From a virus (lineage: Duplodnaviria > Heunggongvirae > Uroviricota > Caudoviricetes): 12,296 bases of DNA. A program made the translations under genes and the position numbers. Location: the IMG/VR virus record IMGVR_UViG_2541047680_000005; one strand, 5' to 3'. Within the stretch, counting starts at the first letter, position 1. Each line of letters begins with the position of its first letter. A model generated the notes under the pieces. The model saw nothing but the letters and a program-made list of their open reading frames with translations, did not search any database and had not been told where the DNA came from. Below are positions 1-12,296 of this stretch, one piece after another.

Positions 1-1027
1 CGGTATTCCCTTTTCCTTCTGTGGCTGATTTCCGGTCATTATCCAGTGCGCAGGTGATTTTTGCCGCCGGGTACATGTTTACCAGTTGTTCCACAACATG
101 AACCATGTTGTTAGCGGATACAGCGACAACCACAGCGTCAAAGCGTTTATCTTTTTTCGTGGCAAGCCAGATGGATGCACCAGTAGCAAAACCTTCTGTA
201 ACAGCGATGTTTTGCGCCCCTTTTAGCTCACCGATAACAAAGCAGGCACCGACGAAATCGCCGCTGGTTACGGCGCTGGTCTGGTATTTTCCACCTTGTT
301 TGTCGATTCGCTGCCAACCCACAATACGACCATCGTAACGACCGTCCAGGTGAGCCAGAGGGATAGCCATATACGTGGTTGGCCCCCTGCTCCATTTTGC
401 GCTGTCGTGACTGGTCACGCGACGCACATCACACGAATTAAAAACGTCACGAATACCTTTTTTAATCGCATATGGCCACGAGCCGTCTTCTGCAGGAGCA
501 TGTTCCCACGCGCTGTGAAATGCCAGCCATCCCAGCAAACGTTCATGGTCCATTTGGTTGTTTTTCAGGTCATTAATTCGTTTTTGTTCTTCACGGCGAC
601 GACGTGCTTCGGCCTGACGTTCTATTCTTGCCCGTTCTTCTTCCGGTTGTGCGACCACGGTCGCATTATTCCGCTGTTGCTCACGGCGATATTCAGAAAA
701 CAGGAAGGAGAAACCGCTCCATGAGCCAGCATCGCTGCCTTTATGGACGAAGTTAATGAACGGATAATCAATCCCTTTGCTGTGTTCCAGCCGGGAGTAA
801 ATTTCTACGCGTCCTTTGAGGCTCTTCTCGAGAGCTTCTGGAGATGTTTTATTGTATGAAGAGTAACGCTCAACACCCCCGCGAGGGTTGAGTTGGATGT
901 TGTCGGAACAGGCAGGCCAGTTGATACCAGCCATCTGTGCCAGCTCGGTTAGTTCATCCCGTGCTGCTTCAATTAGCGAGAACGGATCGCTGCCAAAGCG
1001 ATCCGCATAGAAATCGTTTAATGTCAT
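1..1027 (-). CDS. Replication primase (Toprim / EGYATA-type, RepA-like or P4-alpha-like), N-terminal ~342 codons; the 3' end lies beyond the left window edge
   Basis: Hand translation of the minus strand from ATG at 1027..1025 (MTLNDFYADRFGSDPFSLIEAARDEL...) stays open to position 1. It is absent from the ORF track because no stop lies inside the window. Contains VTEGFATGASIW (EGYATA-like primase motif) and ITCALDNDRKS (DxD, Toprim-like). Track ORFs 105..338 and 296..724 on the plus strand are its antisense shadow. Confidence 0.7.
   Translation of the reverse strand, partial: MTLNDFYADRFGSDPFSLIEAARDELTELAQMAGINWPACSDNIQLNPRGGVERYSSYNKTSPEALEKSLKGRVEIYSRLEHSKGIDYPFINFVHKGSDAGSWSGFSFLFSEYRREQQRNNATVVAQPEEERARIERQAEARRRREEQKRINDLKNNQMDHERLLGWLAFHSAWEHAPAEDGSWPYAIKKGIRDVFNSCDVRRVTSHDSAKWSRGPTTYMAIPLAHLDGRYDGRIVGWQRIDKQGGKYQTSAVTSGDFVGACFVIGELKGAQNIAVTEGFATGASIWLATKKDKRFDAVVVAVSANNMVHVVEQLVNMYPAAKITCALDNDRKSATEGKGNT
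649..666. repeat. 18-bp palindrome copy 1 (GTGCGACCACGGTCGCAT), candidate ParB/SopB-type centromere site
   Basis: Core TGCGACC-AC-GGTCGCA read directly; lies inside the primase coding sequence, where it encodes ATVVAQ on the minus strand. Confidence 0.6.
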
Positions 1028-1076
1028 TTTTTAGCCATTCCATGCGAATTATGTTTTTTCGGGTTGAAAAAATCCG

Positions 1077-1143
1077 CAGGAGCAGCCACAATAAACGCAT
1101 CTTGAATTGACGGAATCCGTCGCGTTGTTGTGGCTGCTTCCTG
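1077..1143. repeat. Long-range inverted repeat CAGGAGCAGCCACAA / TTGTGGCTGCTTCCTG (15-16 bp arms, one-base bulge, ~36-bp loop) in the primase upstream leader
   Basis: Read directly: 1077..1091 is the reverse complement of 1128..1143 except for one extra T. Lies 50-115 bp upstream of the primase start codon. Confidence 0.5.
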
Positions 1144-1150
1144 AAAAGGA

Positions 1151-1178
1151 CCCGAGTTTGCCGACTCGGGTTTTTTTT
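1151..1178. terminator. Intrinsic terminator-like hairpin CCCGAGT-TTGCCG-ACTCGGG followed by T8
   Basis: 7-bp GC-rich stem (1151..1157 / 1164..1170) with TTTTTTTT at 1171..1178 on the plus strand. On the minus strand the same stem is followed by UCCUUUUC, so it may also insulate the repressor transcript from the primase gene. Confidence 0.55.
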
Positions 1179-1272
1179 CGTCTTTTTTCTGCTGCTGTAA
1201 CCTGAGTCAACCCACAGAACATATGCCCTGCATTAAACCAGATTTACAGCAAACAATAAACCCCGTATTAAG

Positions 1273-1869
1273 TCATCTACCCTCAACCATGAATGATTTG
1301 ATCGTTCCGACTATTTGGTGAACAAATTCAAGATCGCTTTTCCTGAAGATGGCGCGTTGTGAGTTTGTTCCATCCAGATAGTAATTTTCATCATCAAAAC
1401 GGGCCAGGCGCTGGATAGTGATATTTCCTGCAGTATCACGAACCAGAACATCCTCGCCGGGGACCAGTTCCAGCGCAGAATCGACCAGGAGAAAATCGCC
1501 TGGCTGATAGTTTCCCTGCGTAAGATTGCTGATAGTTAACGCATACACAGTATTGCGCTGGCTGATGAATGGCAGGAATCGCTCAGTATTTGGAACCTGT
1601 CCCGGCTTCCACTCTTCATCCGGCCCACTTTCAGTTGTGCCAATAACAGGAATGCGATCAGGGTCATATTCTGTCCCATATAGCACCCAATGCACTGGCT
1701 TGCGTAAGCACTTAGCCAGGGCAATACCTATCTCCAGTGACGGCATTACGTCGCCACGTTCTAAGTTTTGGACGCCTGCTATAGAGATATCGACAGCCTC
1801 AGCAACTTCTCGCAACGTCAGCTTCATCTCTAAACGGCGTGCTTTCAGTCGTTCGCCTCGTGTTTTCAT
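1273..1869 (-). CDS. CI-like prophage repressor (N-terminal HTH, C-terminal LexA/S24-like domain, probably non-cleavable)
   Basis: 198-aa ORF. N-terminus LTLREVAEAVDISIAGVQNLERG is a classic XRE-type HTH. C-terminus PGDFLLVD...GNITIQRL aligns by eye with the LexA / lambda CI S24 core, but Gln replaces the catalytic Lys and no Ala-Gly cleavage site is evident. Divergent from the cro-like gene with operators between. Confidence 0.85.
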   Translation of the reverse strand: MKTRGERLKARRLEMKLTLREVAEAVDISIAGVQNLERGDVMPSLEIGIALAKCLRKPVHWVLYGTEYDPDRIPVIGTTESGPDEEWKPGQVPNTERFLPFISQRNTVYALTISNLTQGNYQPGDFLLVDSALELVPGEDVLVRDTAGNITIQRLARFDDENYYLDGTNSQRAIFRKSDLEFVHQIVGTIKSFMVEGR

Positions 1870-1891
1870 AGCTTAATCATAAATGATCTTC

Positions 1892-1907
1892 TTATAGCTG
1901 GCTATAA
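1892..1907. promoter_or_regulatory. Operator O1: perfect palindrome TTATAGC-TG-GCTATAA
   Basis: 7-bp perfect inverted arms read directly; sits in the repressor/cro divergent intergenic region. Confidence 0.65.
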
Positions 1908-1917
1908 AATTTATTTA

Positions 1918-1933
1918 TTATAGCTGGCTTTAA
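1918..1933. promoter_or_regulatory. Operator O2: TTATAGC-TG-GCTTTAA (one mismatch to O1)
   Basis: Same half-site as O1, 26 bp downstream. Confidence 0.6.
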
Positions 1934-1940
1934 ATGCGAT

Positions 1941-1956
1941 TTATTGCTTATAATAA
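1941..1956. promoter_or_regulatory. Possible operator O3 (degenerate, TTATTGC-TT-ATAATAA) overlapping a TATAAT -10-like hexamer
   Basis: Degenerate copy of the O1 half-sites 23 bp after O2; TATAAT at 1949..1954 lies immediately upstream of the cro-like ATG at 1961. Confidence 0.35.
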
Positions 1957-1960
1957 CCGC

Positions 1961-2182
1961 ATGAAACCAGAAGAACTTATTCGCCACTTTGGCAGTGTAG
2001 AAAAAGCAGCGGCTGGGGTAGGTGTAACACCCGGTGCTGTTTACCAATGGTTAACCGCTGGAGAGATTCCTTCATTGCGGCAAAGTGATATTGAAGTTCG
2101 TACTGCTTACAAGCTGAAGAGTGACTTTACAACTCGGCGGGTAAAGCAGTCGATTAAGGAGAGCCGTAAGCGTGGAGCTTGA
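1961..2182 (+). CDS. cro: Cro-like DNA-binding protein
   Basis: Track ORF 1934..2182; from Met10 the protein MKPEELIRHFGSVEKAAAGVGVTPGAVYQWL resembles P22 Cro as I recall it (MYKKDVIDHFG...ISDAAVSQW). Start at 1961 is preferred over 1934 on that alignment; neither has a strong SD, so the message may be nearly leaderless. Confidence 0.8.
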   Translation: MKPEELIRHFGSVEKAAAGVGVTPGAVYQWLTAGEIPSLRQSDIEVRTAYKLKSDFTTRRVKQSIKESRKRGA

Positions 2183-2882
2183 GTATATACGCAGCTGCGT
2201 CTCCACGGCATTGGCTGATATTCATTATCGCCAGCGTGGCATCCTAGAGGTCCAGCTTGAGCAGATGCGTCTAGGCAGATCAGGACGCTTTAACAATAAA
2301 CCAGTCCGGTCAATCAGTGTAGGTGATGATAACTCATACGAAGTGTCCGTTCCTGCTGAGCCGGTTAGATTCCACCAGGGGAAAACATTTAAACAATCAT
2401 CAATGTTGCTCACTGATATTGATTTTCAGAGCGCCAGCTGGCGCAGGGCTATTGGTCAGTTGAATAACGAGGAATCAGCCTGGCTTTATTATTGCTACGG
2501 ATGCAAGCCTGATTACAACAATGATGTGATTGTTTGTCAGTGGTTATGGCTTGATTTTCTGGTTGCTCATTCGGGGGGCGGCTTTAAAAAAATGAAGGCC
2601 TCCACGAAAAAAGCCATGCGGAAATTGATTTATTACGCGGCACAGCAGGTTAAATCAGAACTTACGTGTGCTGAGGCAGTTGATGAGAGAGAACAGGACA
2701 GGCATCTGAGTTTTCTACTGAATATATCTATTGATAGCTGGAGACAAGATTATAAAGAACGCTGGCTTTTAATTAAGTCGCGATGTCTGAGCTTAAATCG
2801 AACTGCATTATTAAATGCGGCGGAGAAGCGCAGTGAAATCATCAAACGCCATCGGGCAGGAAGTGCCATTCTGCCTTTGTAA
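2172..2882 (+). CDS. Hypothetical early protein (236 aa) immediately after cro; possible regulator
   Basis: GTG start at 2172 with AAGGAG 11 nt upstream, overlapping the cro stop. No motif I can assign with confidence. Position matches where cII or Q-like regulators sit in some temperate phages, but that is positional only. Confidence 0.6.
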   Translation: MELEYIRSCVSTALADIHYRQRGILEVQLEQMRLGRSGRFNNKPVRSISVGDDNSYEVSVPAEPVRFHQGKTFKQSSMLLTDIDFQSASWRRAIGQLNNEESAWLYYCYGCKPDYNNDVIVCQWLWLDFLVAHSGGGFKKMKASTKKAMRKLIYYAAQQVKSELTCAEAVDEREQDRHLSFLLNISIDSWRQDYKERWLLIKSRCLSLNRTALLNAAEKRSEIIKRHRAGSAILPL

Positions 2883-3135
2883 ACAAGTTATGTTCAGGAA
2901 ACCGTCGAAGCCAGAATTAAGGTATTCGGGGGTAAGAAATGAATATGTTATCTGGTGTCCAACTTGTGGTTACAGGACACGACCAGATAGTAATAAGCAG
3001 TCTGTAATTGCCGATTGGTATTTATCAAATCAGCCAGGTAATAAGCATATAGAAAATCTTTGGATTAAGCGTTACTTGGAAATCAGAGAGGGTGCGACCG
3101 TGGTCGCACAAGAAAATGAAAATAACGCCATTTAA
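2815..3135 (+). CDS. Small Cys-rich (CxC...CxxC) putative zinc-ribbon protein
   Basis: Track ORF. Contains FCLC and CPTCGY. Start is uncertain: ATG 2815 overlaps the upstream gene by 68 nt, and the alternative ATG at 2890 lacks an SD and would drop the first Cys pair. The last 15 codons include one copy of the 18-bp palindrome. Confidence 0.4.
   Translation: MRRRSAVKSSNAIGQEVPFCLCKQVMFRKPSKPELRYSGVRNEYVIWCPTCGYRTRPDSNKQSVIADWYLSNQPGNKHIENLWIKRYLEIREGATVVAQENENNAI
3092..3109. repeat. 18-bp palindrome copy 2 (GTGCGACCGTGGTCGCAC)
   Basis: Perfect 8-bp arms with GT centre; at the 3' end of ORF 2815..3135, where it again encodes ATVVAQ. Confidence 0.6.
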
Positions 3136-3145
3136 GCAGGGGCCG

Positions 3146-3319
3146 ATGACGCATGATGAAGCAGAGCGTCTTTCAGATACTTATCGGCGGCGTGGTAAGA
3201 AAGTTCTGGTTGTTCGTTCTGATTTTTTAGGTGATGGATATTGCGTTTATGTTCATTTACCTGAATCAGAAAGAACGCCAAAACCATCCAGAACATATCA
3301 ACAGAAAATTTGGGTATAG
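3146..3319 (+). CDS. Small hypothetical protein (57 aa)
   Basis: Track ORF 3092..3319 begins at a GTG inside the palindrome (an artefact). The in-frame ATG at 3146 has GCAGGGG 4-9 nt upstream and follows the previous stop at 3135. Confidence 0.3.
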   Translation: MTHDEAERLSDTYRRRGKKVLVVRSDFLGDGYCVYVHLPESERTPKPSRTYQQKIWV

Positions 3320-3342
3320 ATAAACGTTGAGGAGAATTATTC

Positions 3343-3942
3343 GTGACTAATCAGATTATTTACGACAGGAAACGGTCTGATGTAATGATTGACCTTGAAA
3401 CAATGGGTACTAACACATGTGCTCCAATTGTTTCTATCGGGGCAGTGTTTTTTTCTCCAGAAAGTGAGGAATTAGGTCCTACTTTTTATGTACCAGTGAA
3501 TCTCAGAAGCTCGATGTTGAATGGTGGTGTCGCCGATGGTGATACCATTTTATGGTGGTTGAAACAGAGCAAGGAAGCCAGAGCCGCAATTTGTACTAAT
3601 GATGCCCTTGATATTAAGGATGCACTTTTTGAATTATCACACTTTATTACTTGCCATGCATGTAATTTAAAAAAATTGAAAGTATGGGGAAATGGAGCAA
3701 CGTTCGATAATGTGATTTTACGCGGTGCTTATGAGCGCGTTGGCTTAGCCTGTCCGTGGGAATATTTTAATGATCAGGATGTTCGAACAATCGTTAATCT
3801 TGGTCAGTTTATTGGTTTTAATCCTAAAAAAGATATGCCATTTGATGGCGAACGACACAATGCCCTGGCTGATGCTATTCATCAGGCTAAATATGTATCC
3901 GCAATTTTCTCCCGTCTTGTAAAAGGGCAAGGAGAATCGTAA
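3343..3942 (+). CDS. DEDDh-family 3'-5' exonuclease (DnaQ-like fold)
   Basis: GTG start with GAGGAG 8 nt upstream. Motifs: MIDLETMG (Exo I, D-x-E), a central Asp-containing segment, and HNALADAIH (Exo III, H-x4-D). Confidence 0.8.
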   Translation: MTNQIIYDRKRSDVMIDLETMGTNTCAPIVSIGAVFFSPESEELGPTFYVPVNLRSSMLNGGVADGDTILWWLKQSKEARAAICTNDALDIKDALFELSHFITCHACNLKKLKVWGNGATFDNVILRGAYERVGLACPWEYFNDQDVRTIVNLGQFIGFNPKKDMPFDGERHNALADAIHQAKYVSAIFSRLVKGQGES

Positions 3943-4361
3943 TGGCAAAGGCTTTTACACCAGAACAGAGGGAAGAACTGAATAAACAAATTGTGGAACT
4001 CGTGCGCCTGAATGGACGAGGAACGGTTAGACAACTTGCGGATGAAACTGGTATTAGCCGGTGTGCTGTTAGTCGTTTATCAAGAGAGCTTGCTGCCAGT
4101 GGTGATTTGTATATCTCTGGCTCCGGGATATTTCTGTCTGCACAAGCACGCAAGGACTGGCAAAACGCCCGTAAAAAACTATCAAGAGTAAAGCCGAAGA
4201 AATCGGTAGTGGTTGATCCAGACCTTATCTGGTCATTACCTGACGGAGAAATACGTCGTTACGACAGGCGCTTGAACATGATTTGTCACGATTGCCGGAA
4301 AAGTGAAGTTATGCAGCGTGTGCTGGCTTTTTATCAGGGAAATTTACAGGAGGTGGCGTAG
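3942..4361 (+). CDS. Putative helix-turn-helix DNA-binding protein
   Basis: ATG overlaps the upstream stop (TAATG). N-terminal TVRQLADETGISRCAVSRLSRELAASGDL is HTH-like. Confidence 0.65.
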   Translation: MAKAFTPEQREELNKQIVELVRLNGRGTVRQLADETGISRCAVSRLSRELAASGDLYISGSGIFLSAQARKDWQNARKKLSRVKPKKSVVVDPDLIWSLPDGEIRRYDRRLNMICHDCRKSEVMQRVLAFYQGNLQEVA

Positions 4362-4651
4362 TGAATATCGACACCACGATAACGATCGATACGGCCCTAA
4401 ATATCGGTCTGGCACTTCTCGGTTGGTTTTACATCATGTTCAGCGCAGGGAAGTGGGCGGCCACTGTTTTTCTAAAACAGTGGAAAAAACGGCGCAAACA
4501 GGAGCTACGCCAGAAGGCATTAGAAGCGTTCTATGACGCATTTGAACTTAACAGCATTGAACCAGGCACAACAGTCAGAGTGGCAACCAAAGGTGATCTG
4601 ATGATCATGATGTTCCGACAGGAGAAAGCAGAGAAAGGGGAATCCGCATGA
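4361..4651 (+). CDS. Small membrane-anchored protein (one predicted TM helix)
   Basis: GTG start overlapping the upstream stop. Hydrophobic segment LNIGLALLGWFYIMFSAG is followed by a basic stretch KQWKKRRKQELRQK. Confidence 0.55.
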   Translation: MNIDTTITIDTALNIGLALLGWFYIMFSAGKWAATVFLKQWKKRRKQELRQKALEAFYDAFELNSIEPGTTVRVATKGDLMIMMFRQEKAEKGESA

Positions 4652-5307
4652 AATTTTCCAAATTTTCTGAGTTGGTGAATCGTATCTTGTCCAACAAACA
4701 CAGCCAGCGTTGCGATATGGATGTAACAATCGTTATTCATTCGCCTGGCAGCATTGGTTCAACACCCTCAGTTGAGGTTCAGTCAATTCACGCTGGTTTT
4801 GATTGGGATTCCGGGAAAGTGCTGATTTTCCCAGCACAGCCACTGACCACGCTAACACCAGAACAGATTACTGATATTACTGATAGTGTGCGCAAAGGTC
4901 AGTCCTGGCACGCATATCAGGAATACAAGAAGCATAAAGAGCAGTTGGAAAAATTGTCGATTGAACTGGATGCTGCAAAACAGCGCGTAGCAGAACTGGA
5001 AGCCAAACCTGTAAGCCAAACTTACAAGTTAACTTTTGAGCAATGGCTGGAACAGCAGCATGACAAAATTGATGTTGATTGTGGATGTGTAAGTACTGAA
5101 ATGTTTATGCACTGGATAAGGGTCGCGTATGAGGCTGGCAACTCTCCGGTAACTCCGGATGGTCATGTTCAGTTTTCTGTTTCACTTCCTGCAGCGTTTG
5201 GTGGAGATAAATATTTTATTGATGGTGTATTTCAACCTTTGAGATATGAGCGTGACTGTGAAAGGGCGGTTGTGGCCGCTGGCGGTGTAGTTAGTTGGGT
5301 TAAGTAA
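4648..5307 (+). CDS. Hypothetical protein (219 aa) with central coiled-coil segment
   Basis: ATG overlaps the upstream stop (ATGA). Central KEQLEKLSIELDAAKQRVAELEAK is coiled-coil-like. No assignable catalytic motif. Confidence 0.65.
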   Translation: MKFSKFSELVNRILSNKHSQRCDMDVTIVIHSPGSIGSTPSVEVQSIHAGFDWDSGKVLIFPAQPLTTLTPEQITDITDSVRKGQSWHAYQEYKKHKEQLEKLSIELDAAKQRVAELEAKPVSQTYKLTFEQWLEQQHDKIDVDCGCVSTEMFMHWIRVAYEAGNSPVTPDGHVQFSVSLPAAFGGDKYFIDGVFQPLRYERDCERAVVAAGGVVSWVK

Positions 5308-5322
5308 TTTTCAGGAGGATTT

Positions 5323-5649
5323 ATGGCGCTGACACCGGCAGAACGGCAAAGGAGACGCAGGGAACGGTTGAAGAAGGAAGGCACATCAAGACGGGACTGG
5401 ATTCTAGAACCTGACGAGTTACGTATGTTGGGGGAAATTTGTGTATTGCGTAGACCAGGGCGAGTTCCATATTCGGAGAACGAAGTCATTGGTTTGCTGA
5501 TCAGGAAAAACTATAAGGAGCTGCAGAAGCAGCTATCTACTACTTGCCCGCGATGTGGTCAAAAAATGCCTGTTTCAGAATGCATTTTTGATGGCGAAGG
5601 GTCATGCCACCTTACAACCACGAGGCTGAAACTTGCGCTCAAAGTGTGA
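5323..5649 (+). CDS. Hypothetical protein with Arg-rich N-terminus and C-terminal Cys cluster
   Basis: Good SD (CAGGAGG) 6 nt before the ATG. N-terminus LTPAERQRRRRERLKK; C-terminal CPRCGQ...C...C. Confidence 0.6.
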   Translation: MALTPAERQRRRRERLKKEGTSRRDWILEPDELRMLGEICVLRRPGRVPYSENEVIGLLIRKNYKELQKQLSTTCPRCGQKMPVSECIFDGEGSCHLTTTRLKLALKV

Positions 5650-5667
5650 CTGGTCACGGAGGGATAA

Positions 5668-5910
5668 ATGGATAAAAAGGCATTGCTTTTTGAAATGATA
5701 CGAAAACGGAGCGAAAAGAGCTTTTCTGATGGTGGTGATGGGTTTGTTTTCGCTTCGATGCTTGCTTTTGATGTTGGGTTAAATAGCAGAATTGTTAAAA
5801 GGATGCTTGATTCTGCTGTCCGTACTGGACTTCTTGAGAAAGTTGATCGTGGCATAGGGAGAGAGCATAAGTATCGGGTCACACAGCAGTTTACGCAGTT
5901 AATTCATTGA
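5668..5910 (+). CDS. Hypothetical small protein (80 aa), possibly winged-helix
   Basis: SD GGAGGG 5 nt upstream of the ATG. No diagnostic motif. Confidence 0.55.
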   Translation: MDKKALLFEMIRKRSEKSFSDGGDGFVFASMLAFDVGLNSRIVKRMLDSAVRTGLLEKVDRGIGREHKYRVTQQFTQLIH

Positions 5911-5992
5911 AAATTGACCGTAAAGTTTGAGTTTTATCCTGTAATTTTATACAGTATAAAAAACCTTTTTTAGTTAAATGGTATGAGATTTA

Positions 5993-6196
5993 ATGTCTGA
6001 AGCAGCCGTATCAACTCTTGAACAACTCGATTCAAATTTGAGAGATATTGACGCCGTTCTGGATCTGGTTAGCGTCACCCTGGCTTCTCCAGAAGCCAGC
6101 CTACATATTGGTGAGGTTTCACGACTCATCAACATGTCGCGAGAGATTGCCCAGCATTGTCAGAAAACTATCGCTGTTGAGCGTTCACATCATTGA
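5993..6196 (+). CDS. Hypothetical small acidic protein (67 aa)
   Basis: Preceded by an AT-rich intergenic region with TTGACC at 5914..5919 and TATAAA-like hexamers at 5948..5961. Weak SD. Convergent with the antitoxin gene. Confidence 0.4.
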   Translation: MSEAAVSTLEQLDSNLRDIDAVLDLVSVTLASPEASLHIGEVSRLINMSREIAQHCQKTIAVERSHH

Positions 6197-6238
6197 TGCA
6201 CACCCCGCCCTTCTGGACGGGGTAGTAAAAGAGTCTAA

Positions 6239-6526
6239 TTAATAAACAGCGCGAATATCGATGGTTGCGCCGCAGGCATGAGCATATTTAGCCAAAGTTT
6301 TCATACTTGCCCCTAAAGGATTGCTTTCCAGGCGGCTGATGGCTGACGGTCGCAACCCCATTCGTTCAGCCAGAGCTGATTTCGTTAAACCTGCTCTTTC
6401 CCTCATTTCGTATAACATTTCGACCATCTCCAGCTCTTTGTCGGCCTCTTCATATCCTTTGACGGCTTCTGGAGTGTTGAGGAGTTTTTCTTTTACTTCG
6501 TTAAACGGGATGCCTTTCGCTTTCAT
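6239..6526 (-). CDS. HigA-like antitoxin (XRE-family HTH)
   Basis: 95 aa, with HTH segment LTKSALAERMGLRPSAISRLE. The start overlaps the toxin stop (ATGA at 6526) and the gene lies downstream of the toxin, the HigBA-type order. Confidence 0.8.
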   Translation of the reverse strand: MKAKGIPFNEVKEKLLNTPEAVKGYEEADKELEMVEMLYEMRERAGLTKSALAERMGLRPSAISRLESNPLGASMKTLAKYAHACGATIDIRAVY

Positions 6527-6837
6527 CAGTTCATCTCCTTCAGGCGAGTTCTGGCGATTTCGATAGCCTTCACCGGTGTTTTCTGTGTCTTTTTTACAAA
6601 TGCATGCAATAGATAAATTTCGTTACCAGTCGCGTAGGCGTACAGCGTTCTTGCGATGTTTTTATCCCCTACTCGTAGTTCAAAAAGCCCTCCACCTATT
6701 ACACGGCTATGGGGCATCTTCAGTTTGTTGCCTTCCTTCTCCAGTCGCTCAATTAATCTGGTCATGCGACCTCGCAAATCATCTGGTAGTTCAAGCAGTT
6801 CATCCAGTGCTGCAGGGTGGGTTATCACGTTAAACAT
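6526..6837 (-). CDS. RelE/ParE-superfamily toxin of the HigB / phage Gp49-like group
   Basis: 103 aa; size, toxin-first order and overall sequence resemble the Gp49-like (DUF891) killer proteins as I recall them; the family is named after phage N15 gp49. Confidence 0.75.
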   Translation of the reverse strand: MFNVITHPAALDELLELPDDLRGRMTRLIERLEKEGNKLKMPHSRVIGGGLFELRVGDKNIARTLYAYATGNEIYLLHAFVKKTQKTPVKAIEIARTRLKEMN

Positions 6838-6895
6838 ATTATAGCCTCCATAGCCATAAAATACACCAAAACAAGAAAAAAGCGCAAATTAAAAA

Positions 6896-6913
6896 TTTCA
6901 CTAAAAAGTGAAA
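6896..6913. promoter_or_regulatory. Inverted repeat TTTCAC-TAAAAA-GTGAAA in the toxin-antitoxin promoter region (candidate operator)
   Basis: 6-bp perfect arms read directly, ~60 bp upstream of the toxin start codon on the minus strand. Confidence 0.4.
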
Positions 6914-7002
6914 AATAACACTGGATGTGTTCGTTTGGCAGAGTTACAGTTCGTGTCATTGAGGGGCAATAACCCACTAACTATATGAATTTGGAGGATA
7001 TT

Positions 7003-7224
7003 ATGAATTATCAAGGTAACGAAAAAATGCGCGACGACGTTGCGGAGATAGCTAACGAACTGTATGAGTTGTGGCAGAAGGTTGAACGTTTCGAAAAGGA
7101 ATATGGTTTCAACAGTACCAACCTGGCAGACCGACTGGCTGGTCGCTTAGTTGGGACTATGGGGCCAAAACTGGCTGAGTTGAACCGCTTTATGGCTGAT
7201 GTTGATTTCCAGTTTCAAGATTGA
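7003..7224 (+). CDS. Hypothetical protein (73 aa)
   Basis: GGAGG at 6993..6997, 5 nt before ATG 7003 (track ORF starts at the earlier ATG 6985, which lacks an SD). Divergent from the toxin-antitoxin operon. Confidence 0.55.
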   Translation: MNYQGNEKMRDDVAEIANELYELWQKVERFEKEYGFNSTNLADRLAGRLVGTMGPKLAELNRFMADVDFQFQD

Positions 7225-7237
7225 TTAGAGAGGCGTT

Positions 7238-7465
7238 ATGAATATTAATGAAATTCGTGGAAATATGACTGAAGCGGCCCTGAGTGTGGAATGTGTTATG
7301 CGTGGATACCCACGCATTTCCCTGAAAGAGTTAAGCGAAGCCTGTTTTTTGAGTCAAGCTGCCGTTGAATTTATCATCGAACAGATGATCTGTTTTGGGG
7401 TTGCAAAGCGTAGCGGGTCTGGTCGATATTCTTTGACCGATGAATATAAGCAGGCAACTTTCTAA
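7238..7465 (+). CDS. Hypothetical protein (75 aa), possible small DNA-binding regulator
   Basis: SD GAGAGG 6 nt upstream. Directly followed by a palindrome copy and a structured noncoding region. Confidence 0.55.
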   Translation: MNINEIRGNMTEAALSVECVMRGYPRISLKELSEACFLSQAAVEFIIEQMICFGVAKRSGSGRYSLTDEYKQATF

Positions 7466-7470
7466 AAACT

Positions 7471-7488
7471 GTGCGACCACGGTCGCAC
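7471..7488. repeat. 18-bp palindrome copy 3 (GTGCGACCACGGTCGCAC, arms extend to 10 bp)
   Basis: Begins 6 bp after the stop of gene 7238..7465, at the head of the structured noncoding region. Confidence 0.6.
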
Positions 7489-7573
7489 AGCACAAAAACG
7501 AAAAAGCTTGGCAAAATTACGGTTTTTAGTTATTGTTTTGTTAAGTTGGGTTTTTTGTACCCAACAGCCAACA

Positions 7574-7597
7574 AGCCGCCTTTATGGCGGTTTTTTT
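7574..7597 (+). terminator. Intrinsic terminator (short GC stem CCGCC / GGCGG, loop TTTAT, then T7)
   Basis: Stem 7576..7580 / 7586..7590 followed by TTTTTTT at 7591..7597; downstream of the small-gene pair and upstream of the methyltransferase. Confidence 0.5.
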
Positions 7598-7614
7598 GTG
7601 CCTGAAAAGTGGGC

Positions 7615-7640
7615 GCAGGACAAGTTGCAGCTTGTCCTGC
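7615..7640. repeat. Perfect 10-bp inverted repeat GCAGGACAAG-TTGCAG-CTTGTCCTGC
   Basis: Read directly; no T-tract follows, so not a classic terminator. Candidate protein-binding site or RNA stem-loop. Confidence 0.5.
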
Positions 7641-7684
7641 GGTCAACCCATGCCAGAGCTATAGGCTGAACCTAAAGCCCACCC

Positions 7685-7698
7685 GCGATGCGCATCGC
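7685..7698. repeat. Perfect 14-bp palindrome GCGATGCGCATCGC
   Basis: Read directly; contains the ATG at 7688 that the ORF track uses as the methyltransferase start. Confidence 0.45.
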
Positions 7699-7732
7699 CG
7701 GGTTAGCTTACCCAGGCAAAAAAATAATAGCT

Positions 7733-8809
7733 ATGTTCAAAACCACTAATATTCATGGCGCGCAACTCGTTTGCGCAGATTCTCTGCAATTTATCAAAAC
7801 CATCCCTGATAACTCGGTCAATTTGATTGCAACAGACCCACCATACTTCGGCGTAAAGGCTAACGCATGGGATAACCAGTGGGATAGCGATGCTGACTTT
7901 TTGGGGTGGATTGATGAATTTTTGGCAGAATTTTGGCGGATATTGGCCCCTAATGGCAGCCTGTATATGTTTACCGGCTCTCGCCTTGCGTCAAAAATTG
8001 AATTATTAACTCGCGACCGTTTCAATGTTCTGAACCATATCATTTGGGCTAAACCCAGTGGTATGTGGCGCGGTTGTCATAAAGAAAGTTTAAGGGCTTA
8101 TTTTCCTGCCACTGAAAGAATATTATTTGCAGAGCATTACGGCGCGTCAGGTTATGCTAAAGGTCAGTCAGGTTATGCTTCAAAATGTGCAGATTTAAGA
8201 AAAAATATTTTTTCTCCACTAATTGATGCTTTTTCGCTGGCTCGCCGTCAGTTAGATATATCAGCCGCAGACATTAATTCAGCAACAGGAAAGCAGATGT
8301 GTTCGCACTGGTTTTCTTATTCGCAGTGGCGGCTTCCATCATTAAGTGATTTTAATAAACTATGCGAATTATTTCGCAGGAAGGCAGATTCACTCGGTGT
8401 CCCGTGTCCATATCCTTTTAATGTTGATTATTCAGAACATGAAAAGCGTTATAGCGATCTGAAATTGCGTTATGAGGAAGTAAAGAAGCAGTATGATGAT
8501 TTGAAGGCTCAGTATGAAAATTTGCGCCGCCCATTTCATGTTACTGCTGATGTACCTTATACCGATGTATGGGAGTTTCCTCCTGTGCAATATTATCCTG
8601 GCAAGCACCCATGTGAAAAACCTGCAGCGATGATGGAACATATTATAAAAAGTAGTTCCCGCTCCGGAGATATCGTTGCCGATTTCTTTATGGGATCAGG
8701 CTCTACTATTAAAGCCGCGCTGAAGTTAGGTCGTCAGGCAATCGGTATTGAGATTGAGGGTGAACGTTATCTTCAGACAGTTGATGAAGTGAAAAAGTTA
8801 TTTGAGTAA
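7733..8809 (+). CDS. Orphan beta-class DNA methyltransferase (N6-adenine or N4-cytosine)
   Basis: DPPY (motif IV) near the N-terminus in NLIATDPPYFG and FFMGSGST (motif I, AdoMet binding) near the C-terminus; this motif order defines the beta class. A coiled-coil-like insert (YSDLKLRYEEVKKQYDDLKAQYENLRR) lies between them. Start ATG 7733 chosen so DPPY sits ~35 aa from the N-terminus; the ATG at 7688 is possible. No restriction endonuclease partner is visible. Confidence 0.8.
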   Translation: MFKTTNIHGAQLVCADSLQFIKTIPDNSVNLIATDPPYFGVKANAWDNQWDSDADFLGWIDEFLAEFWRILAPNGSLYMFTGSRLASKIELLTRDRFNVLNHIIWAKPSGMWRGCHKESLRAYFPATERILFAEHYGASGYAKGQSGYASKCADLRKNIFSPLIDAFSLARRQLDISAADINSATGKQMCSHWFSYSQWRLPSLSDFNKLCELFRRKADSLGVPCPYPFNVDYSEHEKRYSDLKLRYEEVKKQYDDLKAQYENLRRPFHVTADVPYTDVWEFPPVQYYPGKHPCEKPAAMMEHIIKSSSRSGDIVADFFMGSGSTIKAALKLGRQAIGIEIEGERYLQTVDEVKKLFE

Positions 8810-8904
8810 CTGAAGAATATATTCCCCTGCCGTTTTTGATGGGGTTATTTCTCGCCGTATAGTTTCCAAGCCGAAACCTCAGCAACTATTGCGAGGTAAG
8901 AGAT

Positions 8905-9177
8905 ATGAAGATGGATGAACGATACAGCAGCGCATCTTATGGTAGTGCTGGTCTTACTGCGTTCTTTGCCAGCCTGTCATTGCAGGATTGGGGCTTCATT
9001 ATCGGTGTCGCGTTCAGCATTATCCTCGGTGTACTTACATACCGGCTCAATAAACGCGAGCAGATGAAGCGCACGAAGATATTGCAGGACATATTGGATA
9101 AAACTGATGCCAATAATATTTCCGCCACGGCGATGGTTATTGGTGAATTGGGAAAGAGAGCACCGAAGGAAATATGA
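8905..9177 (+). CDS. Class II (pinholin-like) holin with dual-start motif
   Basis: 90 aa. Begins MKMDERY (Met1-Lys2-Met3, the classic antiholin/holin dual start). Two hydrophobic segments, [12 protein letters not shown] and [18 protein letters not shown], then a charged C-terminal tail. SD GAGGT 7 nt upstream. Directly precedes a SAR endolysin and resembles phage 21 S21 as I recall it. Confidence 0.8.
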
Positions 9178-9674
9178 TGCAGTCATCATTACGCAAAGCT
9201 GTCGCAACAGCTATTGGTGGCGGGGCTATTGCCATAGCATCTGTGCTCATCTCTGGTCCGAGCGGCAACGATGGTCTGGAAGGTGTGAGACATAACCCCT
9301 ACAAAGACATCGTTGGTGTATGGACTGTATGTTACGGGCATACAGGAAAAGACATTATGCTCGGTAAAACGTATACCGAAGCAGAATGCAAAGCTCTCCT
9401 GAATAAAGACCTTGCTACTGTCGCCAGACAAATTAACCCGTACATCAAAGTCGATATACCGGAAACAACGCGTGGTGCTCTTTACTCGTTCGTTTACAAC
9501 GTGGGTGCAGGCAATTTCAGAACATCGACACTTCTTCGCAAAATCAACCAGGGCGATATCAAAGGTGCATGTGATCAACTACGTCGCTGGACATATGCTG
9601 GCGGTAAGCAATGGAAAGGGCTGATGACTCGCCGTGAGATTGAGCGTGAAGTCTGTTTGTGGGGGCAGCAATGA
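9174..9674 (+). CDS. SAR endolysin (T4-lysozyme-like, GH24)
   Basis: N-terminal Gly/Ala-rich weakly hydrophobic segment [20 protein letters not shown] (signal-arrest-release type). Catalytic E-x8-D-x5-T spacing in [17 protein letters not shown]. Start overlaps the holin stop. Confidence 0.9.
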
Positions 9675-10138
9675 GCAGAGTAACCGCAATTATCTCCGCA
9701 CTGGTTATCTGCATCATCGTCTGCCTGTCGTGGGCTGTTAATCATTACCGTGATAACGCCATCGCCTACAAAGAACAGCGTGATAAAAAAGTCAGTGAGC
9801 TGAAGCAGGCGACCGCCACCATCGCTGACATGCAGCAGCGTCAGCGTGATGTTGCTGCGCTCGATGCAAAATACACGAAGGAGTTGGCTGATGCGAAAGC
9901 TGAAAATGATGCTCTTCGGCGCAAGCTTGATAATGGTGGTCGGGTGCTCGTCAAAGGAAAATGCTCTGTGCCATCCTCAGCCGAAACCTCCAGCGCCTCC
10001 GGCATGGGCAATGATGCCACCGTCGAACTCTCTCCAGTTGCTGGACGAAACGTTCTCGGTATCCGGGACGGAATCATCAGAGACCAGACAGCACTGAGAA
10101 CGCTTCAGGAATACATCAAGACGCAATGCCCGAATTAA
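9671..10138 (+). CDS. Rz: Rz-like inner-membrane spanin
   Basis: ATG 9671 overlaps the endolysin stop, with GGGGG 5 nt upstream. N-terminal TM helix [18 protein letters not shown], then a coiled-coil-like periplasmic domain. Contains the Rz1 gene in the +1 frame. Confidence 0.85.
9891..10097 (+). CDS. Rz1: Rz1-like outer-membrane lipoprotein spanin, embedded in Rz
   Basis: [44 protein letters not shown]: lipobox VVGC and a Pro-rich mature region, closely resembling lambda Rz1 as I recall it (MLKLKMML...VVVGCTSK...PPPPPAW). AAGGAG 7 nt upstream of the ATG. Confidence 0.8.
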
Positions 10139-10179
10139 TCCCTCTGTATCAAAAACGAACTCAATTTGTTGGATAGTGA

Positions 10180-10491
10180 ATGAAAATTTATATTGCCGGG
10201 CCAATGACTGGATATGAGAACTTTAATCGTGACGCCTTTAATAAAGAGGCAGATCGTTTGTCACGACATGGTCACTCTGTCTTGAATCCAGCCACTTTGC
10301 CTAATGGTCTGACACAACGTGAATACATGGATATTTGCTTTGCAATGCTTCGTTGTGCTGATGCTATTTTGATGCTTCCTGGCTGGAAAGCGTCTGCTGG
10401 AGCAACTGCTGAGTATCATTACGCATACAAGATGGAGATGCCGGTATTCACTACGCTGAATTACCCGCCAGCTTGTTCCTCTGTAGCATAA
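10180..10491 (+). CDS. DUF4406-like protein (nucleoside 2-deoxyribosyltransferase-like fold)
   Basis: 103 aa beginning MKIYIAGPMTGYENFNRDAF, the N-terminal signature of this phage-associated family as I recall it. Function unknown. Confidence 0.6.
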   Translation: MKIYIAGPMTGYENFNRDAFNKEADRLSRHGHSVLNPATLPNGLTQREYMDICFAMLRCADAILMLPGWKASAGATAEYHYAYKMEMPVFTTLNYPPACSSVA

Positions 10492-10510
10492 AAATCTCTT
10501 TGTTTCTCGT

Positions 10511-10528
10511 GTGCGACCGTGGTCGCAC
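10511..10528. repeat. 18-bp palindrome copy 4 (GTGCGACCGTGGTCGCAC)
   Basis: 20 bp after the stop of the DUF4406-like gene. Confidence 0.6.
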
Positions 10529-10730
10529 ATTAAATACCGCGCTGCATCGTCGCCGTATTTCCGCATTAACCATGACCGTAGCCCGACGGGGAACTCCTCT
10601 GCGCGAGTGTGCGGAAATAATCAAAAACGATGCACACCGGGTTTTTACCGCGCTAATGATTCGCGGGTTTGTCCCTCATGCTCGCCAGTCCTGTGCGAGG
10701 GTGGAAGAAACAGGGCATGTATTCAGGAGC

Positions 10731-10748
10731 GTGCGACCGTGGTCGCAC
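10731..10748. repeat. 18-bp palindrome copy 5 (GTGCGACCGTGGTCGCAC)
   Basis: 24 bp upstream of the start codon of gene 10772..11632; with copy 4 it brackets a ~200-bp noncoding stretch. Confidence 0.6.
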
Positions 10749-10771
10749 GGTATCTTTGTCAGGAGGTTTTG

Positions 10772-11632
10772 ATGAAAGAGTTGCAAAAAATTAATTCAAT
10801 AATGGAAAGATTAAGTGCTCTTGAGCGTAAGCTGGACGATTGTGGAAAGCTGTGTGTTGAAAAGCAAAATGAGCTTTACCGGGAATTTTTTACAATCGTA
10901 AGTGAGCTGATGCCAATTGTTAATAACTGCCTGATGACATCCAGATTTTTTAATGTCGATGCTACTACATCCAGAAAATTTTCTGTGAAAATTCAAGAAA
11001 GAGTTTCTGGTAGTGTGACAAGAGAGATGGCTGAACAGTTGGTGGCAATGAGCAATAAAACAAAAAGAAAAAAGGCATTGCTTGTAACAGCAAATCAGCT
11101 TTCAGGGCGCGTTGACTTTCAGGTCAGACAGGGTGGGCGTGTACTGGTAAATGATGCGTTCGTTGGACGTAGCTTTAGTCCTTACTCGATAAAATATGAT
11201 GTTGATGCAGATGATCAGGATATCAGCATTTCCTGGAAATCTGAGACAGCAGGGATTGTATTAACAGCAGAGTTGTTGAGTGATGATAAAAATGATGTCC
11301 AGCATCATTTGGACGAAAAGAATCATATTTCTGAAATTTGTATGAAGCCACGCAGCGGAATGACTTTATTGTCACGCACTCTTGCTGCTGGCTTTTCTGC
11401 ACCGGAAAAACGTGTGCTTCTGGTAGTGCCTGAAGATGCAGATATTCGACCACTGAATGGCTGTGATGTTATTAGTGCAAAAACATTGCATACCCGCGTC
11501 ATTCCTGTACCGGATGTGGTCATTATTGATGATGTTGAGAAATGCAAGTCTGTTTCCTCAACTGCCACAATCAAGCGAATTTTACGTTGTAGCACGTCGG
11601 CTGTTGTATTCCGGAAGCAGTTACATAACTAA
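10772..11632 (+). CDS. Hypothetical protein (286 aa), candidate cargo gene
   Basis: Strong SD AGGAGG 5 nt before ATG 10772. The track ORF 10511..11632 starts at a GTG inside palindrome copy 4 and is rejected. N-terminal coiled-coil-like segment; no recognisable catalytic motif. The region looks more AT-rich than the rest of the window by eye. Confidence 0.7.
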   Translation: MKELQKINSIMERLSALERKLDDCGKLCVEKQNELYREFFTIVSELMPIVNNCLMTSRFFNVDATTSRKFSVKIQERVSGSVTREMAEQLVAMSNKTKRKKALLVTANQLSGRVDFQVRQGGRVLVNDAFVGRSFSPYSIKYDVDADDQDISISWKSETAGIVLTAELLSDDKNDVQHHLDEKNHISEICMKPRSGMTLLSRTLAAGFSAPEKRVLLVVPEDADIRPLNGCDVISAKTLHTRVIPVPDVVIIDDVEKCKSVSSTATIKRILRCSTSAVVFRKQLHN

Positions 11633-11755
11633 CAAGTTTTGTTTTGCAGAACATCCTCAACTAAAAGCTTATAGAAAGAGAGCCTGAGATATTTTTTCTG
11701 TCTCTCGTAGTTGTTTATTTTTCTCGAACAGGCTTACAACTTACAGGATATAAAC

Positions 11756-12205
11756 ATGCAAGAAGAAGCAAATAAAATTCTTGTTGATTTATTGAAGAAG
11801 GCCAGCGATGGAATTGATTCCGCCATTGCATTCAGTCAGGCTCAGATTCCGGATGTTGTTCATCAGTTGCTGGTATGGAATATGGTTGATAGCCTGATTA
11901 AAACATTAATAGCCATTTCAACAATCCCGCTGGTTTTCTGGTTTATGAAAAAACAGTACCAAAAAGTTGAAATTGGTATATTCGATAATGAAGGATGGTC
12001 ATGGGAGAAGGGAAAGCCTAAATACAAACCGACTATGATTTGGGAAAGTAACGGTGAGATTAGTTTTCTTATCTTACCATTAGCAGCAGTTTTTGTTCTG
12101 TGGGTAAGTTTTATTATTGCTGTAGTAACCAATATGACATGGTTAAAAATCTGGTTGGCACCTAAGTTATATCTAATCGAATACGCAGCATCACTAATTA
12201 AATAG
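11756..12205 (+). CDS. Hypothetical membrane protein (149 aa, two predicted TM helices)
   Basis: ATG 11756 with AGGA 7 nt upstream (track start 11711 is TTG). TM segments LIKTLIAISTIPLVFWFM and ISFLILPLAAVFVLWVSFIIAVV. Visibly AT-rich. Confidence 0.6.
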   Translation: MQEEANKILVDLLKKASDGIDSAIAFSQAQIPDVVHQLLVWNMVDSLIKTLIAISTIPLVFWFMKKQYQKVEIGIFDNEGWSWEKGKPKYKPTMIWESNGEISFLILPLAAVFVLWVSFIIAVVTNMTWLKIWLAPKLYLIEYAASLIK

Positions 12206-12249
12206 TCCATTACAAAAGCCATTCGCTACTGAGTGCTGATGAATCCCCT

Positions 12250-12271
12250 AATGATTTTGGTAAAAATCATT
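12250..12271. repeat. AT-rich palindrome AATGATTTT-GGTA-AAAATCATT
   Basis: 9-bp perfect arms read directly, 45 bp after the stop of the last gene. Confidence 0.45.
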
Positions 12272-12296
12272 AAGTTAAGGTAGATACACATCTTGT

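Follow-up and report, generated by a model that had tools for sequence, protein, structure and literature searches.

Dispersed centromere sites of the Sop type are known from the phage-plasmid N15, whose SopB-binding inverted repeats, IR1–IR4, were reportedly set out by Ravin and Lane in 1999. We took the IR sequences from a later study that cites that work and lists them as oligonucleotides (PMC7205306, Table 4); there, N15 SopB forms foci on a 4xIR array, and the SopB of the F plasmid does not use the N15 sites. The F and N15 centromeres lie one nucleotide per half-site apart, at position 4/4′, and SopB residues 179–200 (N15 numbering), a helix-turn-helix, carry the site specificity (PMC2910045). 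In the related phage phiKO2, the GenBank record (NC_005857) marks four misc_features as "putative plasmid partitioning sites". Here we describe five palindromes in a 12,296-nucleotide stretch of viral DNA (Caudoviricetes; IMG/VR record IMGVR_UViG_2541047680_000005), hereafter the window. Compared with these systems, the palindromes very probably serve an N15-like linear phage-plasmid as the centromeres (parS-type sites) of its Sop partition system.

The motif, GTGCGACC-NN-GGTCGCAC, has exactly five matches in the window, at positions 649, 3092, 7471, 10511 and 10731. The search used the pattern GTGCGACCNNGGTCGCAC with up to three mismatches allowed, and 200 shuffled sequences served as a control; 0.03 matches are expected by chance, and none of the 200 shuffles reached five. 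The initial annotation, made from the letters of the window alone, was thus right that five copies exceed chance. Four of the five copies are perfect. The exception, at 649, reads GTGCGACCACGGTCGCAT, with T for C as its last, outermost base, a change that leaves the 16-bp core untouched. The window sites have AC or GT at their centre, and the two centres are equivalent because one site can be read on either strand. The sites, to which no strand is assigned, are as follows; sites 3, 4 and 5 are intergenic.

Site 1, 649..666: GTGCGACCACGGTCGCAT, within the 5′ part of repA; orthologue of N15 IR1.
Site 2, 3092..3109: perfect; downstream of Q, in the 3′ end of a 106-residue open reading frame (ORF); orthologue of N15 IR2.
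Site 3, 7471..7488: perfect; 19 bp upstream of the −35 element of a late promoter; orthologue of N15 IR3.
Site 4, 10511..10528: perfect; follows the DUF4406 gene by 19 nt; orthologous by position to the fourth site of phiKO2 and KpLi5.
Site 5, 10731..10748: perfect; at the end of a duplicated lambdoid pre-cos segment, 23 nt before an ATG at 10772; lineage-specific.

N15 carries the motif at 33479 (gene 37, repA), 35930 (after Q), 41124 and 45561 (after gene 58), the copy at 41124 sitting 20 bp before the annotated late-promoter −35. The arms of IR1–IR4 are identical to those of the window motif, and in both elements the sites are dispersed, not tandem. For sites 1–3 the likeness extends to homologous flanks and to the gene context (repA, after Q and the late promoter, as for IR1–IR3), and site 1 shares its flanks and position with both N15 33479 and the phiKO2 replicase-gene site. 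The two sets also differ: the window has five sites and N15 four; the rightmost N15 site follows gene 58, whereas site 4 directly follows the DUF4406 gene; site 5 lies in the duplicated pre-cos segment; the central dinucleotides are unlike; and the imperfect base of site 1 falls at the opposite end. At N15 IR1 the published oligonucleotide begins GTGCGACC and the RefSeq sequence at 33479 begins GAGCGACC; either the two sequences disagree or the oligonucleotide was idealised on purpose.

Of the annotated phiKO2 sites, the first is internal to the replicase gene and the second follows Q; the third precedes the late-promoter −35 by 19 bp, and the fourth comes directly behind the DUF4406-like gp58. 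Window sites 1–4 occupy the same four positions, including the fourth right after gp58, and have the same core. phiKO2 differs in having no fifth site, in flanks that are only about 75% identical and in its Klebsiella host; site 5 is without a counterpart in either N15 or phiKO2. These comparisons bear out the initial guess of N15-type dispersed Sop sites, both in the identity of the arms and in the N15-like character of the element. The accompanying suggestion that five sites in 12 kb would be notably dense did not hold, since the corresponding region of N15 packs four sites into 12.1 kb.

The element can be placed through its relatives. Positions 1–12235 of the window are 99.3% identical to Escherichia phage PhiR46_1 (PV340565), in whose coordinates the window spans 7283–19578, and the same high similarity extends to about 25 plasmids of 42–50 kb from E. 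coli, Shigella, E. albertii and E. fergusonii; N15, phiKO2 and the Klebsiella and Enterobacter relatives are about 75% identical to the window. PhiR46_1 is a linear 46-kb N15-like phage-plasmid with annotated telL/telR, a protelomerase (633 residues) 77% identical to N15 TelN, and SopA and SopB 93% and 74% identical to their N15 counterparts. Genes for SopA and SopB (sopAB) are also present in the E. albertii, E. coli pAH01-1 and E. fergusonii plasmids that we examined. The window itself contains the 5′ part of repA, the immunity and antitermination genes cB, cro and Q, early genes and a RelE/ParE pair, followed by the late promoter, a methylase gene, lysis genes and two genes without an assigned function. 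Judged by these identities, the window is part of an N15-like element, a close E. coli relative of N15. The sopAB genes, protelomerase gene and telL/telR all map outside the window; the partition genes, protelomerase and hairpin telomeres which the initial annotation had proposed to look for were all found on the near-identical, full-length PhiR46_1. The same holds for the motif count over the full replicon: PhiR46_1 has five copies, all inside the window region and none elsewhere in its 46 kb.

The last 61 bases of the window (12236–12296; CTGATGAATCCCCTAATGATTTTGGTAAAAATCATTAAG...) differ from PhiR46_1. We take them to be the terminal repeat of IS10/Tn10, and the window's element then presumably carries an IS10 insertion after ORF 11756–12205. 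No record spanning the junction at 12236 was found in the collections searched. The IS10 end also accounts for thousands of short plasmid matches to the window.

Conservation singles out the palindromes from their surroundings. For comparison with the window we picked four genomes by homology and not by the motif, namely N15, phiKO2, Enterobacter phage MStein-2023a and Klebsiella phage KpLi5, giving five genomes in all, and each of the four has a site at every orthologous position. Over sites 1–3, invariant columns make up 44 of 48 in the arms and 94 of 180 in the flanks (Fisher p=1.3e-7). The central two bases are free to vary, GCGACC-NN-GGTCGC is unchanged throughout, and the four mismatches all fall at the outer two positions. 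That the site is upheld at the DNA level, as had been proposed, is therefore supported by arms far more conserved than their flanks.

The motif is also rare outside this group. Among 120 motif-bearing stretches in a scan of viral contigs, 91 were similar to N15 or PhiR46_1, a similarity that includes lambda-like head and lysis genes, and the centre was AC or GT in 147 of 157 sites. In a genome collection of 596 Gb, 118 of the 120 matches listed were lone copies in taxa that are unrelated to one another and mostly GC-rich, which is roughly what chance predicts for that amount of sequence; the two exceptions among those listed were a 46-kb Pseudocitrobacter contig similar to PhiR46_1 and N15, and an Escherichia prophage. 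For the frequency in the host we used a search of E. coli genomes together with the calculated chance of about 0.001 per 5 Mb for 16 fixed bases. Prophage-bearing chromosomes hold 1–2 copies per 5 Mb, against 5 per 46 kb in PhiR46_1. The motif is accordingly not a generic host repeat, the outcome that would have counted against the initial annotation, yet the host chromosome is not wholly free of it, some integrated lambdoid prophages carrying sites 4 and 5.

Comparison with F sharpens the assignment. We used an IncFIB plasmid in place of F; it has 12 tandem copies of TGGGACCACGGTCCCA at 43-bp spacing just after sopB. The F and window sites share a 16-bp palindrome, a homologous SopB and the AC centre. 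They differ by one base in each half-site (TGGGACC in F, TGCGACC in the window), which confirms on the IncFIB sopC the single symmetric substitution given in the initial annotation. They differ also in arrangement, with 12 tandem copies directly downstream of sopB in F, whereas the window sites extend over 10 kb, with sopAB more than 25 kb away. No F-type site, TGGGACCACGGTCCCA, was found in the window. An F-type sopC centromere was rejected on these grounds: the sites are dispersed, they are one base per half-site off, and the F-type site is absent. More distant likenesses exist in RK2, pMF1 and chromosomal parS, where several palindromes of the ParB or KorB type are scattered over a replicon, some at promoters, but the sequences and ParB subfamilies are unrelated; KorB is moreover a documented global regulator, whereas a regulatory role of the window sites is only inferred.

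The SopB of PhiR46_1 matches the crystal structures of F SopB. Around the conserved recognition arginine, both the PhiR46_1 and N15 proteins read D-R-N and the F protein S-R-K. The PhiR46_1 protein keeps the ADGSRRRK arginine patch, and the other contact arginines are conserved. Judged by sequence, its helix-turn-helix would belong to the N15 specificity type.

Work on N15 and F suggests how such sites would act. A SopB dimer would bind each 16-bp core, TGCGACC-NN-GGTCGCA, through its helix-turn-helix. In F, ParB is turned at the site into clamps that depend on CTP, spread and seed the partition complex (PMC12477601), and each window site would likewise load further SopB onto adjacent DNA as CTP-dependent clamps. 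Text matches to "N15" in that paper proved to be the name of a mutant, N153A, and not the phage. The partition complexes would then stimulate the ATPase of nucleoid-bound SopA, which would move the plasmid copies to both sides of the plane of division. Having several sites dispersed over the element would provide redundancy. A single IR is reportedly enough for a circular mini-N15, and the linear N15 is said to gain from several dispersed ones, in work of Grigoriev and Lobocka in 2001 and Dorokhov et al. in 2010.

The assignment to the Sop partition system thus draws on identity to IR1–IR4, synteny of four positions, conservation of the arms, confinement of the motif to this region of the replicon, and the presence of SopAB on near-identical relatives. 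Several observations weigh against it. The sopAB genes are not within the window, and the cognate genes are inferred from 99%-identical relatives; we relied on these for sopAB and telN because no collection record spans the window's IS10 junction. In the recognition helix, the PhiR46_1 SopB reads IISRCI where N15 SopB has IVNRCM, a difference of a few residues. Site 5 is possibly redundant. Finally, sites 4 and 5 occur in prophages without sopAB in the 40 kb examined (see below), so the presence of a site alone is no proof of centromere use.

The strongest alternative, which is compatible with a partition role, is that the sites serve mainly as SopB-dependent silencers or regulators of late and lytic genes, with partition secondary. 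It draws in part on the arrangement downstream of site 3, which follows the layout annotated in N15 and phiKO2:

Late promoter-like sequence, 7508–7536, + strand: TTGGCA-17-TATTGT; begins 19 bp after site 3.
Terminator, 7573–7593, + strand: downstream of the late promoter-like sequence.

The spacing from the site to the −35 is 19 bp in the window, 20 bp in N15 and 19 bp in phiKO2, and such conservation suggests that SopB at site 3 may dampen late transcription in the prophage state, as a likely second role beside partition. The idea draws on the spacing and on general background on N15; we found no open paper on SopB silencing of N15 late genes. Site 2, moreover, follows the gene for the Q antiterminator, all of the sites fall between repA and cos, the third of the genome given over to regulation and late control, and spreading and silencing are known for ParB-type proteins. 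Set against this, the N15 IR sites work as centromeres, and sites 1 and 2 lie inside genes and not at promoters. We therefore hold a chiefly regulatory function to be possible but clearly the less probable reading. PhiR46_1 has an annotated 53-residue coding sequence at 14790–14951 (window 7508–7669, + strand) that begins at the −35 and spans both promoter and terminator; it is probably not a gene.

If the palindromes are taken as Sop centromere sites, their number and history at the cos-proximal end of the element become of interest. Two features accompany sites 4 and 5, which are about 200 bp apart:

DUF4406 gene, 10180..10491, + strand: precedes site 4, as in phiKO2 and KpLi5.
Segment S, 10539..10749, + strand: copy of the sequence that directly precedes cos in lambdoid phages; placed between sites 4 and 5, ending in site 5.

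Segment S (211 bp) matches, at 94% identity, sequence in the 300 bp that precede cos in the integrative lambdoid phage 2B8, and it also occurs in phage Ayreon. A second copy, without a site, is found at 19604–19775 of PhiR46_1, in that genome's own pre-cos position, so placed that the two copies flank the two genes in 10772–12205. The segment is non-coding, about 170–210 bp long and very conserved; of 5426 complete E. coli genomes, 3181 contain it. Its consensus fold has long helices, with one compensatory pair only in 16 sequences, and an Rfam scan of the window gave no match. The two genes lie between site 5 and the IS10 end (10772–11632, 286 residues, and 11756–12205, 149 residues, both on the + strand), and Pfam returned no match for either product. 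The first starts at ATG 10772, preceded by GGAGG, and is the annotated gene downstream of site 5; the ORFs 10473–10772 and 10511–11632, which run over sites 4 and 5, are not annotated genes.

Among close relatives, site 4 is exact, begins TTGCGACC, or is degraded to GTGCGATC...GCTC. An E. albertii plasmid has six perfect or near-perfect sites, one of them in the pre-cos copy of the segment. A sixth site is likewise present in an S. sonnei plasmid and in pAH01-1, where site 4 is degraded (GTGCGATC...GCTC). In the E. fergusonii plasmid NZ_CP055678.1 a single site (at 27517) combines the left flank of site 4 with the right flank of site 5, and the 220-bp unit between them is absent, a pattern expected if the two 18-bp repeats had recombined or if the unit had not yet been inserted. 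A 46-kb contig of Pseudocitrobacter vendiensis has sites at 7651 and 7832, 181 bp apart at the IR4 locus, and the extra one appears to be a fifth site gained independently at this end of the genome. Site number is not fixed, then, but ranges from four to six, with gain, decay and collapse at the cos-proximal end. Such turnover of sites 4, 5 and 6 agrees with the centromere sites being redundant.

Sites 4 and 5 also travel beyond phage-plasmids. In the chromosome of E. coli VTB96815v (NZ_CP178648.1), an integrated lambdoid prophage next to zur contains window positions 9669–12235 at 98.9% identity (17970–20536 in the sequence examined), a module comprising the lysis end, the DUF4406 gene, an exact site 4, segment S, an exact site 5 and the two downstream genes; no sopAB was found in the 40 kb examined around it. 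Most of the unit from site 4 through S to site 5 was present in 40 of 5426 complete E. coli genomes; chromosomes make up slightly over half of the 40 listed records, and where checked the unit lay in lambdoid prophages. Six further chromosomal copies have plasmid-like site alleles, site 5 being exact in four of four and site 4 either degraded or carrying one outer mismatch. That chromosomes and plasmids share the same alleles indicates recent exchange of the module and not independent selection.

Lambdoid pre-cos segments, sampled without bias, had the palindrome in exact or asymmetrically mutated form, had lost it by deletion or, in one case, had it symmetrically changed. This last case is phage 2B8 (NC_049952.1), which has the symmetric variant GTGCAACCGTGGTTGCAC at 48654–48671, in the place corresponding to site 5 and some 90 bp ahead of cos; this phage has an integrase and O/P replication genes, no ParAB and a single copy of the variant. 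That both arms changed so as to keep the palindrome may be chance. In our reading, recombination brought sites 4 and 5 into these prophages as orphans, for which a function in trans is possible. A stronger proposal, that a cassette of DUF4406 gene, site 4, S and site 5 moves between N15-like plasmid prophages and integrated lambdoid ones and plants orphan SopB-binding sites in E. coli chromosomes that act in trans, is speculative on the present comparisons and in our estimate unlikely. Were it true, orphan sites could cause partition incompatibility with a co-resident N15-like phage-plasmid or titrate its SopB, or, alternatively, SopB could shut down the late region near cos in the lambdoid prophage; through such sites the two prophage lifestyles would compete.

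A second alternative is that the repeats are not protein-binding sites but primarily recombination junctions for module exchange, or simply a generic host or phage repeat. The collapse of sites 4 and 5 in E. fergusonii into one with mixed flanks fits a junction, as do the breaks in homology, with N15 about 40 bp past site 2 and with the lambdoid phage 2B8 at site 5. Sites 1–3, however, lie within continuous homology in all relatives, 18 bp is short for homologous recombination, and recombination at the repeats is better seen as a side effect. The generic repeat was excluded because there are no further copies in 46 kb and the matches listed from the genome collection are chance singletons apart from the two phage-related enterobacterial contigs. 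We consider this second alternative very improbable.

The weakest reading, to which we give almost no credence, makes the palindromes hairpins, transcription terminators or RNA-stability elements: although the N15 record marks 45560–45584 (IR4) as a stem_loop and putative rho-independent terminator, site 5 passes a lenient terminator scan and the symmetric double variant of 2B8 retains pairing, a weak T tail was seen at site 5 only among the sites scanned, the loop would be 2 nt, two sites lie in coding sequence on opposite strands, the sequence and not just its pairing is invariant across genomes about 75% identical, and the variants of other lambdoid phages are asymmetric. A terminator was rejected on the T tails, the coding location and the conservation at the level of sequence.

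The coding context of sites 1 and 2 remains to be described:

5′ part of repA, 1..1027, − strand: primase/replicase, homologue of N15 gene 37; contains site 1.
106-residue ORF, 2815..3135, + strand: holds site 2 and shares sequence with the 3′ end of Q; zinc-ribbon-like motif (CxC...CPxC) in the product.

Site 1 is read in repA as ATVVAQ in both the window and N15. The initial annotation was correct that two copies lie in coding sequence and encode this peptide, the second being site 2 in ORF 2815–3135. That ORF overlaps the last 68 nt of Q and is unannotated in PhiR46_1 and in the N15 RefSeq record, but it appears as "orf QD1" in the old N15 record U45242. Upstream of site 2 it is every third base, in the frame of this ORF, that varies. 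The product can be aligned in five genomes, with the CxC...CPxC motif conserved and the stop conserved in four, and it has a weak match, below the cut-off, to a Lar-like (restriction alleviation) Pfam family. By this pattern of conservation the ORF is a real gene overlapping the end of Q. In KpLi5 a change in an outer base of site 2 makes the stop codon of the ORF.

The finding rediscovers the known N15-type dispersed Sop centromere, with one extra site, in an unannotated E. coli relative, and it shows that a plasmid centromere can be recognised by a reader working from sequence only. Biologically it adds little beyond what N15 and phiKO2 had provided. The additions are modest: a site number that varies from four to six, two sites that travel with a late-gene module into lambdoid prophages, and a gene overlapping Q. 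It also supplies the unannotated partition sites of the widespread N15-like phage-plasmids of E. coli, Shigella and E. albertii, which are useful for annotation, for phage-plasmid typing and for SopB-based DNA-labelling tools.

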